Assembly: GCA_028718605.1 (NCBI GenBank) | Contig: JAQULM010000002.1 | Span: 257,776 to 321,775, forward strand | Source: Patescibacteria group bacterium | Lineage (GTDB): Bacteria; Patescibacteriota; Patescibacteriia; UBA10025; JAHIVO01 | Length of the DNA stretch: 64,000 bases | Direction of reading: 5' to 3' | Shown here: positions 9,091-61,467 of the stretch, one piece after another | Position numbering within the stretch: the first letter of the stretch is position 1 | Layout of the letters: each line of letters opens with the position of its first letter | Program-made: the position numbers and the translations under genes | The notes under the pieces: generated by a model | Database searches by the model: none | Told to the model about the DNA's origin: nothing | Seen by the model: the letters and a program-made list of their open reading frames with translations, nothing else

Positions 9091-10488
9091 ATGGCATACG
9101 AAGAAGAAAGCCGGCGGCAGTTTATTGTCGATCCGGCACACGTACGAAGGTCAAGTTTTGGCTTGCACCCTCGTTTCCACAAGACATTCGCTCGGGCGAT
9201 GCGCGATGGCCGGCGGCTCCCCGTAGAAAAATGGGAAGCGCGCTATCAGCAGCCTATCGCAGCATACCGTGATCCACGGCATCCGTTTGTCTGCGTCCTG
9301 CCGCGTTCTGCGTTCTGCCAGTACGTCGACGACTGCGGCGACTGCATCGGTGGCACGCAAAGTCTGTGGTTCAGCTCCACGGACTTCTACGTCGATATGA
9401 GCGATAAACCGGGTGCGGTATTCGCCCAATTTCACCATCCGCTTTTCGAACGCTTATGGAGCGTATCAGAGCTCCAGTTCCTTGTCCCGCCTTATCCGAC
9501 CGACAAGGAAGATGGTGAACTAGTATTTATCACCCCTCCGTTCTCGCACTCTCGCGGTGAGCACTGCTTGCTCGCCGCTGCTATCGCGGAGGTGCTGCTG
9601 GCGCGGGCCGGATTTTCGACTGAGGAACGGGCGGCATTTGTCCTGGCTATGGGCTACCATGACATCGCCATGCCGGCTGGCGGCGATTCGGTCAAACGAG
9701 TATCCCCGGACGAGCTCGATGAGGAAAAAAACTTTGCCTCACTACTCGAACAAACCGGGCTCGCGGCTGCCTGGAAACAGCAATTCGGCTTCAGCCTGGA
9801 CGCAGCGGCTGCCTGGGTGCGCAATGAGGGAATGCTTGGCCTGCTGCTGGATATCATTGACAAGATATCCTACGTCTCCATGGACTGTTACTCACACGGG
9901 CTATTGTTCAATGGAAATGTGCGGAAGCACTGTTCCCGTCATCCGTTGTTTCTCGATGTGTGGCGGGACATCAGGTTCACCCCGGACCGGCAGCGCTTCG
10001 CCTTCCTCTATCCGGACCGGCTCTTCGACTTCCTTCTGGCGCGTGCGTACGAGTACCAGGAGTTGCTTTTCAACCCAGCTGCCCGGTTCCTCGACTTCCA
10101 CTTGACGAACCTCGTCCGCCCGCTGTACGAAACGGGGAGAATAACCAAAGACCAGCTGCTCAGCTGGTCGGACGGCCAGCTCGAGTGCTGCCTTGAGGCT
10201 CACTATGGGGAAGCGGCGGTTCACCTCTCCGTCATCAATGCTGCTAACTACCAATGGCAGCGGTTTGATACGCAGGAAGAACTGATTGACTTCTGGGGGA
10301 CGCTCGGCAAATCGTTCGATCATGTTGAAACGATTTCAGGATTCAACCCCAATCTTGAATGGCCGGTCTATGCCGCCAACGGCACCGACATCGTTCCTGC
10401 CCGCGAACGCCTTACGCCAGCTCAAATCAGCGAGCTGGAAACTATTGTCAAGGCAACGCGCGGCAACTTTATCTACTGGCACACTTAA
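9091..10488 (+). CDS. HD-domain phosphohydrolase family protein.
   Basis: H...HD metal-binding signature (HSRGEHCLLAAAIAE ... AMGYHDIAM). A promoter-like TTGACA-17-TACTAT lies at about 9000-9028. Confidence 0.5.
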   Translation: MAYEEESRRQFIVDPAHVRRSSFGLHPRFHKTFARAMRDGRRLPVEKWEARYQQPIAAYRDPRHPFVCVLPRSAFCQYVDDCGDCIGGTQSLWFSSTDFYVDMSDKPGAVFAQFHHPLFERLWSVSELQFLVPPYPTDKEDGELVFITPPFSHSRGEHCLLAAAIAEVLLARAGFSTEERAAFVLAMGYHDIAMPAGGDSVKRVSPDELDEEKNFASLLEQTGLAAAWKQQFGFSLDAAAAWVRNEGMLGLLLDIIDKISYVSMDCYSHGLLFNGNVRKHCSRHPLFLDVWRDIRFTPDRQRFAFLYPDRLFDFLLARAYEYQELLFNPAARFLDFHLTNLVRPLYETGRITKDQLLSWSDGQLECCLEAHYGEAAVHLSVINAANYQWQRFDTQEELIDFWGTLGKSFDHVETISGFNPNLEWPVYAANGTDIVPARERLTPAQISELETIVKATRGNFIYWHT

Positions 10489-10530
10489 AACCCCTTGACC
10501 AGCTTGCTGCCAAGTTGTGAAAGGGGTTTT
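10487..10530 (+). terminator. Intrinsic terminator after the HD-domain gene.
   Basis: AAAACCCCTT...AAGGGGTTTT stem directly after the TAA stop, followed by a T-run. Confidence 0.6.
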
Positions 10531-10547
10531 ATATTACGCATTTCCGG

Positions 10548-10576
10548 TTGACAAACGCCCTTTTTTGCGCTATAAT
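10548..10576 (+). promoter_or_regulatory. Consensus sigma70-type promoter: TTGACA, 17-bp spacer, TATAAT.
   Basis: Perfect -35 (10548-10553) and -10 (10571-10576) hexamers. Followed by an A-rich initial transcribed region. A near-identical module is at 61250-61278. Confidence 0.6.
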
Positions 10577-10582
10577 GGTAGT

Positions 10583-10695
10583 AGAAAATAAAAAGCAAAA
10601 GCAAAAAAAGGCTCTTTTGCATCAGGGGACAATCACTTACTCTCGATCCGTCACGCGCATGGCGGCCGGAAGCAAGTGATTGTCCCCGTTTTTTT
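10583..10695 (+). ncRNA. Candidate small RNA (~110 nt) between a consensus promoter and an intrinsic terminator.
   Basis: TSS predicted ~7 nt after the -10. The A-rich 5' part is followed by a 16-bp stem (GGGGACAATCACTTAC...GCAAGTGATTGTCCCC, 10625-10687) and a T7 run. No plausible CDS: the only ATG overlaps the -10 and there is no SD. Confidence 0.3.
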
Positions 10696-10710
10696 GCATA
10701 TAAAAGAAAC

Positions 10711-10737
10711 GGGCGCCGACGACTAGCATCGGTGCCC
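10711..10737 (-). terminator. Intrinsic terminator for the minus-strand gene ending at 10786.
   Basis: GGGCACCGATGCTAGTCGTCGGCGCCC hairpin followed on the minus strand by GTTTCTTTTAT. Confidence 0.5.
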
Positions 10738-10785
10738 GTAATTGTCTTGATAAGGCAGCAAAACATCCAGCATTGAACGAGTCGA

Positions 10786-11271
10786 TTACGCGATACTCAT
10801 CTGTATCGCCAGTGAGACGTGCAGCGCGAAATGACTAGTGCATGCCGCAATGCCAACATCCGACCGGGATAATGAATTGGCAACGTCCAGAACCGCATCA
10901 ATCGTTGATTCAAGCGTTGCTACCGTCAGCGTCGGAACATGCTGCGACACCACCATGCCGCAGGGAAGATAGTTGTCCTGGACATCATTGACCGCTGCAT
11001 GATAGGCAATCGCCATCATGCCTACCTCGAGCAGAAGCTGTTCCCTTCTCGGATCCCGGAAGCCTACTCGGTCAAACACTGAGCTGAGATTGGAAAGTCC
11101 CAGATTCAATGCCGTACCGAATTCTTCAATGAGTGAATTCCCGCCGAATGCGCCTCCGATCGCAGTACTCAGTTCGGTAGCTGGTGCCTCCGCACACTTC
11201 CTTGACATCCGGCCGCATAGAATATTGACGAGTTGGCTGCCAGATAGATTTACCTCATTGGTACAATCCAT
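10786..11271 (-). CDS. Hypothetical protein, 161 aa.
   Basis: ORF with reasonable codon usage and no recognised domain. Last gene of the sigma/anti-sigma/beta-propeller co-directional cluster. Confidence 0.4.
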   Translation of the reverse strand: MDCTNEVNLSGSQLVNILCGRMSRKCAEAPATELSTAIGGAFGGNSLIEEFGTALNLGLSNLSSVFDRVGFRDPRREQLLLEVGMMAIAYHAAVNDVQDNYLPCGMVVSQHVPTLTVATLESTIDAVLDVANSLSRSDVGIAACTSHFALHVSLAIQMSIA

Positions 11272-11451: not shown

Positions 11452-13932
11452 TTACTCAGTTTTAATTATCGTGTAGTCAGTGCCCGAATCTCCCGGCGCG
11501 AGCTTCAGCGACTTCACCTCATCCAACGTGTCGAGGCTGTGCGCCTTGAGGTACTTGTCCGAAAGCGTATATAGCACTGAATCGATGTACAAGCTGCGCT
11601 TCACGCTCGTACCGTAGTACGAGTAGCCCCAGTAGTACTTCGAATCCGAATCGTCCGCAGACCCATCCGAATGGTCGATCTGCTTGCGCAGCTCAAACCC
11701 CGTCGGTGTCACCTTGAACACCATGGCGCCATTGGTGTACGTCCGTTCGTACGACCCGGCGACGAGCTCCTTGCTCAGCGTCACCGGCACGACGAGGAGG
11801 TTCTTTTCTTTATCAAAGAGGAATGCCTTGTGGTCATTGAGTGCAATCGAATCGCTGCCGGCGTCGCCCATCTCGTACGTGTCGACCTCTTTCATGTTTG
11901 CAACATCAGCTACATCATAAAGCGACAGTTTCAATCCCTGCACTTGTCCGCTCTCGGTCGCCTGTTTGCCGAGGCCGATGAGCAGCGTGTCGCTGTACGG
12001 ATGCAGGTATGACGAGAAACCAGGCACCTTGAGCTCGCCGAGGAGCTTCGGATTCTTCGGATCCTGGAGGTCGATCGCGAATAGGGGGTCGGTCTGTCGG
12101 AACGTCACGAGGTACACACGGTTCTGCATGAACCGCGCTGAGTAAATCTGCTCGCCTTTCGCAAGTTCTTCAACCGAACCAACGACTTTTAGATTTTTAT
12201 CAAGCACATACACATTGCTGTACGAATCACTGTCCGAGCCGACAGTGGCGACGTCTTCTGCCATAACCATGCTCGACAACCAGCTCCTGCCTTTGGTCGT
12301 CGCGATGCGGAAATAATCGCCGCTCTCATCCATGGAAAACTGGTTCAGCACATGGCCGGTCACTTCCCCACTACCTTTATACTCAAGTTCGCCGTCCTTC
12401 AGCGCAATCTTATGTATCACGGTTTTTTCAAGCTCTTTCGAAATATCCTCATACACTTGCTTCACTTTTGCGCTGATCTGTTCCTGCAATGCGGTCTGTT
12501 CGTCGTCTGACAGCTGCTCAAGATACCTGCTCAATATTGTGTAAATTTTCATGACCTTCTCTTCCTGCGACAGGATGCGGTCTGAAACCGCTTCGATCTC
12601 CCTGATCCGCGCCTGTTCCCGCTCGCTCACTTTCTGCATGAGAACATCCCGGGACGCCTGCCACATCAGCTGGTATTCGCTCACGTACTTCGTATAGACG
12701 AGGTACATGTTCTCGAGTGATACGTACATGTTCTCGCTCGATCCGGTCAAATACAGCTCCTTTGAAACTGCCGAATCCTTATCGGTGATGTCAACTGCAC
12801 TGACGCTCGTGTACACGTAGTTATCGTACGGCGCATCGATATAGTAAATGTCCGGCAAGCTTTCCGTAGCGGTCGTGTCGATGTTCGCCGGAGACACTTT
12901 GCCGCCGTCAATCATGAGCGGAATCGGATACTCGTCAGTCACGTACATCGTCGGCTCTGCTGTCACCAGATACACATAGTCGCCAATCATCCGGGAATTG
13001 ACAAAGCTGCCCTCGAACGTGAGGTCGCGCACCTGCTCAGGATTCGCCGGGTCGGAGACGTCGAATACCTTCAGATACGTATACGAAGATTGCGGCCGTA
13101 TGTCTTCAAAAAATGGTTTTTCTGATATATTCGATTCGGTACCGTATATCACCAGGTTGTCGCCATTGATGTACAAATTGGTCGGAACCGAATCAAGGAC
13201 GATTGTCGAAATGATCTTCGCGTCGCCGGCGGGATATGCTTTGATGACAAACACACTCGTTTCTGAAACTGTATAAACATACTCGCCGTCTGTTTTTACA
13301 ATATCAGCCTCATCCACGCCTTCAACTTGCACATTCGTCCTCGAATAGTCTTCTGACCCACTGCTTTTCTGCGGTGCGCTCAGGTCAGCCGTGCCGAGGC
13401 CGAATGTCGTACCCATATCCTCCTCAACCATGATATCAGACGTAAACGCACGAGTACCGCCATAATAACTGGAATATGAGCTCGGCTCATGATCAACAAG
13501 GAACGATCGGACCTGATCGAGATTTTCGAACTTGCCGATCGTTGACTGTGCGGCGAGCTGTGCCGACAGCGAACGTATATCAGTGCTGCCCGTCGTGATC
13601 CGGTTGCTGTTGTATCCCGATACCAGCGCATTTGAATTCCCGTTCGCGTTTCCTTCCCATGGGAATCCGTACTGGAATCCGGCATAGACAAGCGCGGCGC
13701 ACACGACAACCGCGATCGCTCCCCCGACGAGCCAGGCCTTCCCTGAGGACGGCGTGGCATCGGGAACGAGCCGTCTTGCCTGGTGAATGTCCTCAGTGCG
13801 GTTCGTAATAATCGTTGCGTCAACCTGCTGTTTCGTCCAACCGCTCTTCATGAGATAGTCCCGGATCTCAGCATCGCTCCGCCCTTGGGCCCGTGCGGCG
13901 TCGATCCACTGCTCAATGTCTTTGCGAATCAT
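11452..13932 (-). CDS. Membrane-anchored beta-propeller domain protein: N-terminal cytoplasmic helix, one TM segment, extracytoplasmic propeller-like repeats.
   Basis: TM segment WLVGGAIAVVVCAALVYAGF. The repeated beta-strand-rich blocks (e.g. YVYTVSETSVFVIKAYPAGD, NLVIYGTE, YVYLVTAEP) resemble the secreted 'Beta_propel' family. Confidence 0.5.
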   Translation of the reverse strand: MIRKDIEQWIDAARAQGRSDAEIRDYLMKSGWTKQQVDATIITNRTEDIHQARRLVPDATPSSGKAWLVGGAIAVVVCAALVYAGFQYGFPWEGNANGNSNALVSGYNSNRITTGSTDIRSLSAQLAAQSTIGKFENLDQVRSFLVDHEPSSYSSYYGGTRAFTSDIMVEEDMGTTFGLGTADLSAPQKSSGSEDYSRTNVQVEGVDEADIVKTDGEYVYTVSETSVFVIKAYPAGDAKIISTIVLDSVPTNLYINGDNLVIYGTESNISEKPFFEDIRPQSSYTYLKVFDVSDPANPEQVRDLTFEGSFVNSRMIGDYVYLVTAEPTMYVTDEYPIPLMIDGGKVSPANIDTTATESLPDIYYIDAPYDNYVYTSVSAVDITDKDSAVSKELYLTGSSENMYVSLENMYLVYTKYVSEYQLMWQASRDVLMQKVSEREQARIREIEAVSDRILSQEEKVMKIYTILSRYLEQLSDDEQTALQEQISAKVKQVYEDISKELEKTVIHKIALKDGELEYKGSGEVTGHVLNQFSMDESGDYFRIATTKGRSWLSSMVMAEDVATVGSDSDSYSNVYVLDKNLKVVGSVEELAKGEQIYSARFMQNRVYLVTFRQTDPLFAIDLQDPKNPKLLGELKVPGFSSYLHPYSDTLLIGLGKQATESGQVQGLKLSLYDVADVANMKEVDTYEMGDAGSDSIALNDHKAFLFDKEKNLLVVPVTLSKELVAGSYERTYTNGAMVFKVTPTGFELRKQIDHSDGSADDSDSKYYWGYSYYGTSVKRSLYIDSVLYTLSDKYLKAHSLDTLDEVKSLKLAPGDSGTDYTIIKTE

Positions 13933-21558: not shown

Positions 21559-21984
21559 TCACTCCTTGTCCTCCACGGACACCTTGTCCATGTCAATCTC
21601 CTCGACAACTACCTCGTCATTTACCTTCTCGGGAGTTGCTGAGCTCGCGTGTTTCGCCCCGCCGAGCATGATGAGGTTCTGCGCGATGATTTCAGTCGTG
21701 CTGCGCTTCACGCCGTCCTTGCCTGCCCACGAACGGTTGTGCAGCCGGCCGTCGATGTACACGCGGTCGCCCTTTTTCAGGTACTGGCCGACGACATCGC
21801 CGAGCTTGCCCCATGCGATGAGGCTGTGAAAGTCCGTTGTCTTCTGCTTCTTCTTCGACTTGAGATCGCGCCACGTGTAGTCAGTCGCCACACGGAACGA
21901 AGCGACAGACTGGCCTGACGGGAGCGAACGGAGCACTGGATCCGCGACCAGGTTGCCGATCAGCTCTGCCTTGTTGAGATTCAT
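21559..21984 (-). CDS. ssb: Single-stranded DNA-binding protein.
   Basis: OB-fold motifs (MNLNKAELIGNLVADPVLR, FRVATDYTWRD, ITAWGKLG-like block IAWGKLGDV) and a C-terminal acidic tail (EEIDMDKVSVEDKE). Start taken at the ATG with a GAAAGG SD. Confidence 0.8.
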   Translation of the reverse strand: MNLNKAELIGNLVADPVLRSLPSGQSVASFRVATDYTWRDLKSKKKQKTTDFHSLIAWGKLGDVVGQYLKKGDRVYIDGRLHNRSWAGKDGVKRSTTEIIAQNLIMLGGAKHASSATPEKVNDEVVVEEIDMDKVSVEDKE

Positions 21985-22134
21985 ACGACGATACCTTTCT
22001 TGGTTACCTGCCATGCACCGTGCACGACCGTTTCAGTAAAACGCGCTACACTCGTGAGGGGCCCCGCAGCGCATGAAAACGTGCATGCATAGTTTTGGCT
22101 TATATTAGATAAAGAACGATTTATTTAATCTGCC

Positions 22135-22162
22135 TTGACAGTATTTGTAAAATGGGTAGAAT
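22135..22162 (+). promoter_or_regulatory. Promoter-like element: TTGACA, 16-bp spacer, TAGAAT.
   Basis: Consensus -35 with a good -10. It faces the low-GC island and runs antisense to the minus-strand small membrane-protein genes. No convincing CDS lies downstream. Confidence 0.3.
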
Positions 22163-22422
22163 ATAAAACAGCTCTAGAAAAAAGGCGTTACTGACTTTGC
22201 AGGCTCTGCTATCCGAAACCCCTCGTAACCCGAGGTTGCTAAAGATGGTAGAGAAAAGTAGCGTTTATATTTCTACGTTATTCGAGCTCCAAACTGACGA
22301 CCGAACCCTCATGCTAAGGTCGTTTTTTGGTTATACGAAAAACATCCGGCGCGTGATCGGGATACGGAAAGACCCACGTTATCTCCGTACTAGAACGTCA
22401 CGACATTCCACCGTCCATGGCT

Positions 22423-33677: not shown

Positions 33678-34147
33678 ATACATCGCAGCATCAGAACAGT
33701 ATCAACACTTTATCCTCAACAATCGAAAATATGCAAAAAACCCTAATAACTAACCAAAAAGGCGGCTAAATCGTACTATTTGTTGACGGTTTAGTCCCGC
33801 CAAAAGCGGGATTTTTGTTACTCCGAGCGAAGCGAGGAGTAACAACCCCGAGGGAATCGAGGGGTCCCACAGTTTGAAAGCTCAAAACGAAGAGGCGGCG
33901 GAAATATGGCTGAGGCAACAACCCCGAGAGAGCCGTCGGCGAATCGAAGGGTCCCCAAGCACTGCCGCCCAACGTACTTAATACCAAATATCCGAACTGC
34001 CGATCACTCTATCCTCGATAGAATGGTTCCAGATCAGATCTTTGACCGGACATTAACAACTGAATATGGTAGAACGAGATCTTGTAAGCAAGTTAAGTAA
34101 GTATACTAAGACACAAGGACGCAAGTTCAGTGTTTTAGTGATTGCAA

Positions 34148-37272
<3,125 letters not shown>

Positions 37273-37468
37273 CATATTGCAATCACTAATACGCTGATCT
37301 TTTTAGAATCCGTTCTACCATATGAACAAAGACTACGGTCCGCACCTTATTGCGGTCTTTGTTCTGGTGATAGTCCTCTTCGGACTTCTATTTTACCTGA
37401 CGCCGCTCTCATCCTAAGACCGGTCACCAGTGGCCAGAGAGAACAACCATGGTTCGTTGTTCGCTGGC

Positions 37469-37585
37469 CTCTGGTGATTAAGCACCAGGGTCACACCTGA
37501 TCCCATTCCGAACTCAGTCGTTAAGCCTGGTAGCGCCAATGATACTACGGGGCATACTGTCGGGAAAGTAGGTTATCGCCAGAAC
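37469..37585 (+). rRNA. rrf: 5S ribosomal RNA.
   Basis: Helix I CTCTGGTGAT/ATCGCCAGA. Conserved CCCATTCCGAACTCAG and GGTAGCGCCAATGATACTAC blocks. Confidence 0.8.
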
Positions 37586-61205: not shown

Positions 61206-61249
61206 CAGTGTACCTTCGTGCCTTTAAATTGTCAATCACTCGTATGTGA

Positions 61250-61278
61250 TTGACAAAAACCTTTTTTTCCGCTATAAT
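61250..61278 (+). promoter_or_regulatory. Consensus promoter TTGACA-17-TATAAT, second copy of the module at 10548.
   Basis: Perfect hexamers. The -35 is embedded in the palindrome TTGTCAATCAC-N7-GTGATTGACAA (61229-61257). A-rich leader. About 190-nt 5' UTR before the large repeat-protein gene. Confidence 0.55.
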
Positions 61279-61467
61279 AACGTTAGAAATCAAAAATAAA
61301 AATCAGAAAAATAATGTCTAATGCCTATCACATGCGCAGTGGCGAGGGGAATTGCATTTGGATAGGAGGTACTGCCATACGAGCGGTGTACGCTAGATAC
61401 TGCCCGAAGGTTTTTTATATAATTCATTTTCATATACTACTACATTTAAAAAAATAATCGTATCACT

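Follow-up and report, generated by a model that had tools for sequence, protein, structure and literature searches.

A candidate free-standing small RNA gene with its own promoter and terminator in a Patescibacteria lineage

Terminator-ended trans-acting small RNAs (sRNAs), such as the Hfq 'class II' RNAs ChiX and MgrR, provide the closest described parallel to the locus reported here. We analyzed a stretch of 64,000 nucleotides (nt) from a Patescibacteria group bacterium (assembly GCA_028718605.1, contig JAQULM010000002.1, positions 257,776 to 321,775; this whole stretch is called the window), in which an initial annotation, made from the sequence letters, had proposed an independently transcribed sRNA between positions 10487 and 10740. 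Based on sequence comparisons, we consider it likely that the locus is a free-standing gene for a non-coding RNA with a predicted length of ~110 nt, which would represent a previously uncurated family of one lineage of the Patescibacteria (candidate phyla radiation, CPR). The proposal gained support from the recurrence of the unit in four further genomes, from conservation that starts at the -35 element, from compensatory changes in the hairpin, and from the lack of a conserved open reading frame (ORF).

The candidate has in common with the ChiX/MgrR type an own sigma-70 promoter, a length of ~100 nt, a conserved and probably unstructured 5' domain with A-rich repeats of the AAN/ARN kind, a 3' terminator hairpin with a U-tail, the lack of an ORF, and an orphan intergenic site. 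The repeats read AAU AAA AAG CAA AAG CAA AAA AAG and are followed later by U7, which is a resemblance to the Hfq class II RNAs only. However, neither its sequence nor its structure matches an Rfam family, the conserved domain is of low complexity and A-rich instead of a mixed-sequence seed, a terminator hairpin of 63 nt (~25 pairs) with conserved irregularities is unusually long, and the host belongs to the Patescibacteria. Spot 42 of the Enterobacteria (spf, RF00021) is likewise ~109 nt long, with its own promoter and terminator, and is encoded next to polA, downstream of it in Escherichia coli. In contrast to spf, the RNA gene studied here is divergent from polA and upstream of it, gives no cmscan match to RF00021 and no sequence similarity, and comes from a phylum that is not related; the two resemble each other in position only, probably by coincidence. 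The locus also recalls back-to-back convergent terminators, i.e., hairpin/T-run elements facing both ways between convergent genes. Unlike in those, the plus-strand hairpin would end a dedicated ~110-nt transcript with its own conserved promoter, no gene ends there, and the preceding HD-domain gene has a separate terminator 95 nt upstream.

A comparison with Rfam 15, one of the checks proposed in the initial annotation, was negative for 6S RNA and for any other family. In the RNA region, cmscan reported nothing relevant at E<=10, the best overlapping match being a microRNA model that scored 22 bits (E=1) where the threshold is 100, and in the whole window only the 23S, the 5S, and two tRNAs reached the gathering thresholds. 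The four homologous loci described below gave nothing at E<=1, and the region of a paralogous promoter (see below) was likewise without a relevant match. The literature on sRNAs of the CPR and on the stem sequence was also searched, and nothing relevant was found.

The predicted unit is wedged between the terminator of the HD-domain gene and the terminator of a convergent gene (Table 1). All the elements named in the initial annotation, namely the HD-gene terminator, the promoter, the A-rich part, the hairpin, and the minus-strand terminator, were recovered in place. The promoter, described there as perfect, indeed matches the consensus at 12 of 12 positions. From the base composition of the window, 0.0055 perfect TTGACA-17-TATAAT promoters are expected in 64 kb on both strands, and two are present, the second one (at 61250) being the paralogue of the first. 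Downstream, an A-rich leader of ~30 nt, which is probably single-stranded, and a short linker precede a long hairpin, P2, with its run of seven U. The hairpin and this run stood up to closer inspection, whereas the 16-bp GC-rich stem attributed to it is in fact a basal helix of 14 contiguous pairs (10625-10638 with 10674-10687) that continues, with interruptions, to ~25 pairs. Above the base follow an A.C mismatch (10639/10673), the pairs CU/AG, a C.A mismatch (10642/10670), and the pairs UCG/CGG, and the top is formed by an apical helix (10648-10653 with 10660-10665) and a 6-nt loop (10654-10659). For a 114-nt transcript, the minimum free energy is -43.2 kcal/mol (z=-6.0), and none of 200 shuffled sequences folds as well. 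The U-run is present on one strand only, as none follows the hairpin on the opposite strand.

Other genomes were searched for the module of promoter and hairpin, as had been proposed, and four further genomes were found to carry the whole unit. These homologues (L056, L063/L074, L072, and L085) come from metagenomes and metagenome-assembled genomes of uncultured Patescibacteria; L074 is a longer contig of the same organism as L063, and the two are counted as one. L056 and L063 were obtained from a metagenome scan with the two hairpin arms (GGACAATCAC-N33-43-GTGATTGTCC), which returned 16 loci and the whole unit in two of them. L072 and L074 were found by a synteny look-up of the closest homologues of the beta-propeller protein that is encoded near the unit in the window. 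A covariance model, R1, was built from four sequences and detected L085, which lay outside the training set, with an E-value of 1.8e-10. The beta-propeller proteins next to the homologues are 51-62% identical to the one of the window (62% in L063).

The remaining 14 matches of the metagenome scan were rejected as unrelated palindromes. Five of these chance matches (L057, L065, L069, L070, and L071) represent one unrelated conserved element, a hairpin of 54 nt that has these 10-nt arm ends too and lies in a conserved flank adjoining a short ORF that starts MATI. Six look-ups of beta-propeller homologues did not reveal the RNA in the loci L073 and L075-L084. Synteny of the HD-domain gene, whose closest homologues are only 47% identical, was also followed: 18 loci were fetched and 12 CPR loci among them inspected. 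The sequence downstream is unrelated in these and includes nothing comparable to the unit, and neither nhmmer nor blastn gave a match; the RNA is not linked to the HD-domain gene. Two assemblies of the same population (L019 and L020) are 100% identical and thus uninformative. An identical locus is contained in the runs SRR22315506 and SRR22315508. Among viral contigs, family-specific patterns had 0 matches, and blastn against phage and plasmid collections gave no match. A promoter-only pattern matched 35 times in viral contigs, all of which are generic strong phage promoters and were discarded as homologues.

Across the five homologues, the conserved block begins exactly at the -35 hexamer and ends past the U-run, which is the extent of a gene that has a promoter and a terminator of its own. 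With neighboring proteins that are merely 51-62% identical, intergenic DNA evolving neutrally should no longer be alignable. In all five, TTGACA is followed by a 17-nt spacer with TTTTTGCGC at its end, by TATAAT or TATACT, and by a start region (T/C)AGAAA; the A-rich leader ends in AAAAAGG in four of them. The base of the 5' arm of P2 reads (G/A)GGGACAAUYRCU in all cases, followed by UAC in four; the CUUAC of this arm is conserved, and the basal helix (GGGGACAAUCRCUUAC) is nearly invariant. The pyrimidine linker and a U-run of four to eight directly after P2 are likewise found in every homologue. The five sequences fold into the same architecture, with z-scores from -5.5 to -7.6.

The pairing of P2 is supported by covariation. 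In the model-based alignment of the five sequences, 94.7% of 114 pair cells are standard pairs, and eight of the 23 pairs show compensatory double changes. The basal helix itself covaries, CAC/GUG being replaced by UGC/GCA in L072 and by CGC/GCG in L085, and four of the five homologues retain the C.A mismatch, which lies 2-4 pairs beyond the first irregularity. None of 500 shuffles reaches any of the main pairing measures of P2, and sliding the partners by 1-3 columns lowers the pairing to 39-54%. Regarding the coding potential, frames, starts, and stops are inconsistent among the homologues, and L085 has no ORF at all. Of the features expected of an independent sRNA gene, an own conserved promoter, an own terminator close to it, a covarying helix, and the lack of a conserved ORF were observed.

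The genomic neighborhood is in line with an own transcript. The promoter side of the unit is occupied in L072, L074, and L085 by polA alone, which is divergent and whose ATG is 57-116 nt away from the -35 element. No read-in is possible there, and the RNA therefore needs its own promoter. In the window, the HD-domain gene with its own terminator lies between polA and the RNA gene. In four of the five genomes (window, L063/L074, L072, and L085), a convergent gene comes next downstream, which is not the same gene in each; this arrangement excludes that the unit acts as a leader or attenuator. In L056, the downstream gene is the co-directional trxB, which starts ~75 nt past the U-run and has its own extended -10 element, TGTTATACT.

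Table 1. Features of the candidate RNA gene, its surroundings, and related elements in the window (identities are mean pairwise values among the five homologues)
Feature	Coordinates	Strand	Description	Identity
HD-domain gene	9091-10488	+	Stop codon 10486-10488	
HD-gene intrinsic terminator	10486-10531	+	Boundary element outside the RNA gene; inverted repeat I1; UUUUAUAUU tail	
Region upstream of the -35				35%
Sigma-70-type promoter	10548-10576	+	-35 TTGACA 10548-10553; 17-nt spacer AACGCCCTTTTTTGCGC; -10 TATAAT 10571-10576	87%
Predicted start and A-rich 5' domain (leader)	10583-10611	+	Start at ~10583, placed 7 nt after the -10; AGAAAAUAAAAAGCAAAAGCAAAAAAAGG	81%
Pyrimidine-rich linker	10612-10624	+	13 nt; CUCUUUUGCAUCA; indels of 1-5 nt	48%
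Long hairpin P2	10625-10687	+	63 nt	
P2 base, 5' arm				85%
P2 base, 3' arm				76%
P2 top				37%
G and U7 tract	10688-10695	+	Intrinsic terminator with P2; U7 10689-10695; predicted 3' end	
Convergent-gene intrinsic terminator	10699-10739	-	Boundary element; inverted repeat I7; then UUUCUUUUAU	
Convergent orphan gene	10786-11271	-	161 amino acids; without Pfam match	
Beta-propeller gene	11452-13932		Neighbor of the RNA unit in the window	
Second orphan unit	22135-22330	+	Promoter TTGACA-16-TAGAAT, 11/12	
Paralogue of promoter and A-rich leader only	61228-61313	+	Perfect promoter 61250-61278; leader UAGAAAUCAAAAAUAAAAAUCAGAAAAAUA (at 61284)	

Several points weigh against an RNA gene, or limit how far it can be described. 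Both the start and the 3' end are predictions. The covariation comes from a small sample of only five sequences, four of which were used to derive the P2 structure, and the invariance of the stem base is partly forced by the ascertainment, as L056 and L063 were retrieved with a pattern that fixes ten bases in each arm. A further helix, P1, between the A-rich leader and the U-rich linker was considered and is not supported, as 61 of 500 shuffles are as good and the slid controls pair at 55-70%. Moreover, the sense strand is not favored by the hairpin energy, which is better for the sense in two homologues and for the antisense in three; since these energies do not separate the strands, the orientation of the RNA rests on the promoter and the U-run. 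Finally, the 5' half of the RNA was compared in four genomes with the start regions of polA, the HD-domain gene, the beta-propeller gene, and the small ORFs, and its complementarity to them does not exceed that of shuffled sequences (|z| <= 1.5); the low complexity of the A-rich domain makes pairing targets hard to predict.

Four other explanations were weighed. The selected object could be the DNA, or the act of transcription, and not the RNA product; examples would be a short, strong divergent transcription unit whose supercoiling activates or shields the promoter of the adjacent polA, a cassette of terminator and promoter, or a palindrome to which a protein binds. Such a role would account for the back-to-back arrangement with polA in L072, L074, and L085, and the core of the P2 arms (CAATCAC/GTGATTG) does recur as an operator-like palindrome over the paralogous -35; in addition, symmetric changes in a palindrome can mimic RNA covariation, and sense and antisense strands fold about equally well. 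However, conservation in the transcribed leader and the 5' arm equals that of the promoter, which a pure driver of transcription would not need, and the arms of P2 are 35-39 nt apart, unlike those of a dimer operator. Eleven G.U cells in the sense pairs would be A.C mismatches in the DNA or the antisense strand, and the unit is intact without an adjacent polA, both in the window, where the HD-domain gene intervenes, and in L056, where it lies upstream of trxB. We thus regard this explanation as unlikely. A cis-regulatory unit, either an attenuator or riboswitch-like leader or a conditional terminator that, when read through, yields antisense RNA against the convergent beta-propeller operon, appears quite improbable. 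The succession of a strong promoter, a leader, and a terminator does resemble attenuators, the trxB gene of L056 is co-directional at the short distance given above, and any transcript passing the terminator in the remaining four genomes would run antisense to the convergent genes. On the other hand, no co-directional gene is conserved downstream, the convergent ones are not constant, and trxB has its own extended -10. There is also no conserved alternative helix or anti-terminator pairing, P1 being unsupported, a second, convergent terminator stands directly behind P2, and no cis-regulatory family of Rfam is matched.

A tiny mRNA has to be considered as well, since the earlier statement that the unit contains neither a Shine-Dalgarno (SD) sequence nor an ORF did not hold: a TTG-initiated ORF of 20 codons (10617-10679, MHQGTITYSRSVTRMAAGSK) follows an SD-like AAAGG. 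The A-rich leader would then be a ribosome-binding region, and the TTG/ATG micro-ORF would be translated into a small peptide, or into a leader peptide that opens the terminator as it is being made. Four of the five homologues do have a TTG or ATG in frame just past the leader, from which the reading continues through GGG ACA ATC ACT (GTIT/GTIA), the resulting peptides have (L)LF.SGTI(T/A)Y in common, and in the paralogous leader at 61284 an ATG (61314) comes directly after it. Yet this ORF is not conserved. L085 has a TAG right before the shared codons and no start codon, the ATG ORF of L072 runs through the terminator without a stop and owes its start to a lineage-specific G-to-T change (G in the other four), and the start in L056 lies 0 nt from the AGG. 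The peptide lengths (14, 14, 20, >32, and none, with three TTG ORFs of 14-20 codons) are as inconsistent as the start, the frame, and the stop, and the linker differs by indels (13, 14, or 16 nt) that are not multiples of three. There is no synonymous-site bias, as the third positions of GGG ACA ATC ACT TAC show no variation apart from a single change, for which the opposite arm compensates, and the two substitutions of the 5' arm are both matched by compensatory changes in the 3' arm. Translation of this ORF is therefore quite improbable as well. The last alternative is a housekeeping RNA, i.e., the 4.5S RNA of the signal recognition particle (SRP) or the 6S RNA, diverged so strongly that the Rfam models missed it. 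Both are abundant, stable RNAs made from strong promoters, for which perfect-consensus promoters are typical, and the SRP RNA is, like the candidate, a single long irregular hairpin of similar size; besides, the 3' strand in the window contains GGAAGCA, as does domain IV of the E. coli 4.5S RNA. This stretch is not conserved, the homologues having GAAGGUA, GAGGACA, and UAUGCAA, and the apical loop and helix are the most variable part here but the most conserved one in SRP RNA. The GNRA tetraloop and the symmetric-loop AGCA/AGG motifs of domain IV are absent, a length of ~110 nt without a central bubble does not suit 6S RNA, and the Rfam searches had no match, be it in the window (E<=10) or in the homologues (E<=1). 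A hidden SRP or 6S RNA is thus hardly credible.

Under the sRNA reading, the sigma-70 promoter would start transcription near 10583, and the transcript would consist of a largely unpaired A-rich 5' domain of ~30 nt, the short pyrimidine linker, and P2, which together with the U-tract would form the RNA's own intrinsic terminator. The RNA would presumably be abundant, because its promoter is a perfect consensus. It may act in trans, because conservation is highest in the A-rich domain and the 5' arm, while the top of P2 varies and stays paired. The single-stranded A-rich domain, with its AAN/ARN-type repeats ending in AAAAAGG, could be bound by an RNA-binding protein or by a U-rich RNA partner, and P2 would serve termination and 3' stability, and possibly as a helix recognized by a protein.

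The paralogue at 61250 suggests a more specific direction. It shares a near-identical spacer, the start region, and the A-rich leader with the RNA gene, as seen in the alignment, and the pattern TTGACAAAnnCCyTTTTTTsCGCTATAAT matches in the window at these two places only (0 expected); the covariance model gives a weak match there (E=1). The paralogous promoter runs into a ~185-nt 5' region of a gene for a surface protein (start 61468, at least 844 amino acids, CarboxypepD_reg repeats), a region that contains a 47-codon ORF (61314-61457). An 11-bp palindrome, TTGTCAATCAC-N6-GTGATTGACAA, has the -35 in its right arm, and its core, CAATCAC/GTGATTG, is the core of the P2 arms, a pairing of motifs found nowhere else in the window. 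These similarities suggest a common descent of the two elements, and possibly co-regulation or competition for a factor. The most specific hypothesis would be that the RNA is co-regulated with the mRNA of the surface protein, or competes with it for a factor that binds the leader. Since the promoter and A-rich domain copy those of this mRNA (61250-61313), which would be a highly expressed one, and the near-invariant basal helix is identical in sequence to the half-sites of the palindrome, the RNA could even be a molecular mimic or decoy that titrates a leader- or operator-binding regulator of cell-surface gene expression; we see this as a long shot, which, if true, would mean an RNA-based control circuit in an episymbiotic CPR lineage. 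As a separate observation, the left arm of the palindrome would provide a mirror-image -35 for the minus strand.

Some observations on similar promoters are reported here in their own right. In the phage contigs L041, L042, L044, L045, and L052, which were among the promoter-only matches, the -35 element TTGACAAA is in several cases the loop of a GC-rich hairpin, whose 3' arm and T-run form the spacer of the promoter, giving a compact overlap of terminator and promoter. The T-rich spacer of the RNA-gene promoter resembles this arrangement. On the polA side of the RNA gene in L085 (9778-9806, minus strand of the locus), a perfect 12-bp hairpin, CCCCGTTAGAGA-ATTT-TCTCTAACGGGG, abuts the -35.

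Concerning the surroundings in the window, 17 bases separate the hairpin of the HD-gene terminator (-23.1 kcal/mol, z=-5.0) from the TTGACA of the unit. The terminator of the convergent gene has its stem at 10709-10739 and its U-run at 10699-10708, read on the minus strand (-20.7 kcal/mol, z=-4.4). A simple terminator scan accepts loops of 3-8 nt only and, for this reason, missed all three hairpins. A minus-strand ORF at 10485-10766, judged implausible from the start, encodes 93 amino acids without a Pfam match, and the equivalent gap has no called gene in L072, L074, and L085. For the 161-amino-acid product of the convergent gene, no homologues were found beyond the same population. Small ORFs occur at the matching position between the beta-propeller gene and the RNA gene (window, 10786-11271, minus strand; L072, 7586-8050; L074, 5820-6362; L085, 8690-9549). 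They were considered as a possible protein partner of the RNA and are not homologous, with no significant mutual similarity between genomes (best E=0.04); either they evolve very fast or they are not real genes.

Elsewhere in the window, the second orphan unit lies in the gap between an ssb-like gene (21559-22014, minus strand) and small membrane ORFs. Its transcript of ~160 nt would begin with CUCUAGAAAAAAGGCG and end in a hairpin with U6, folds as a rod (-50.6 kcal/mol, z=-3.9), is overlapped by a doubtful TTG-initiated ORF of 102 amino acids, and has no Rfam match at E<=1; it may be another sRNA. In the region 34142-37584 (plus strand), a 23S rRNA gene is followed by the 5S rRNA gene. The 23S rRNA comprises 3143 nt, ~220 nt above the bacterial model, and no 16S rRNA gene was found in the window, which extends 34 kb to the upstream and 26 kb to the downstream side. 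The rRNA operon thus appears to be split, and the 23S rRNA probably carries an insertion.

Patescibacteria have small genomes with few recognizable regulators, and to our knowledge hardly any regulatory RNAs have been described for them and almost no riboregulation is known. Judged from its sequence features, the candidate would be a new family within a familiar kind of sRNA, the one that has a promoter and an intrinsic terminator of its own, and its value lies in the addition to the catalogue and in the lineage, while no concept is changed. With it, the CPR gains a concrete and testable riboregulator candidate together with a ready covariance model, R1, and the promoter and leader that it has in common with a surface-protein gene point to a specific regulon.

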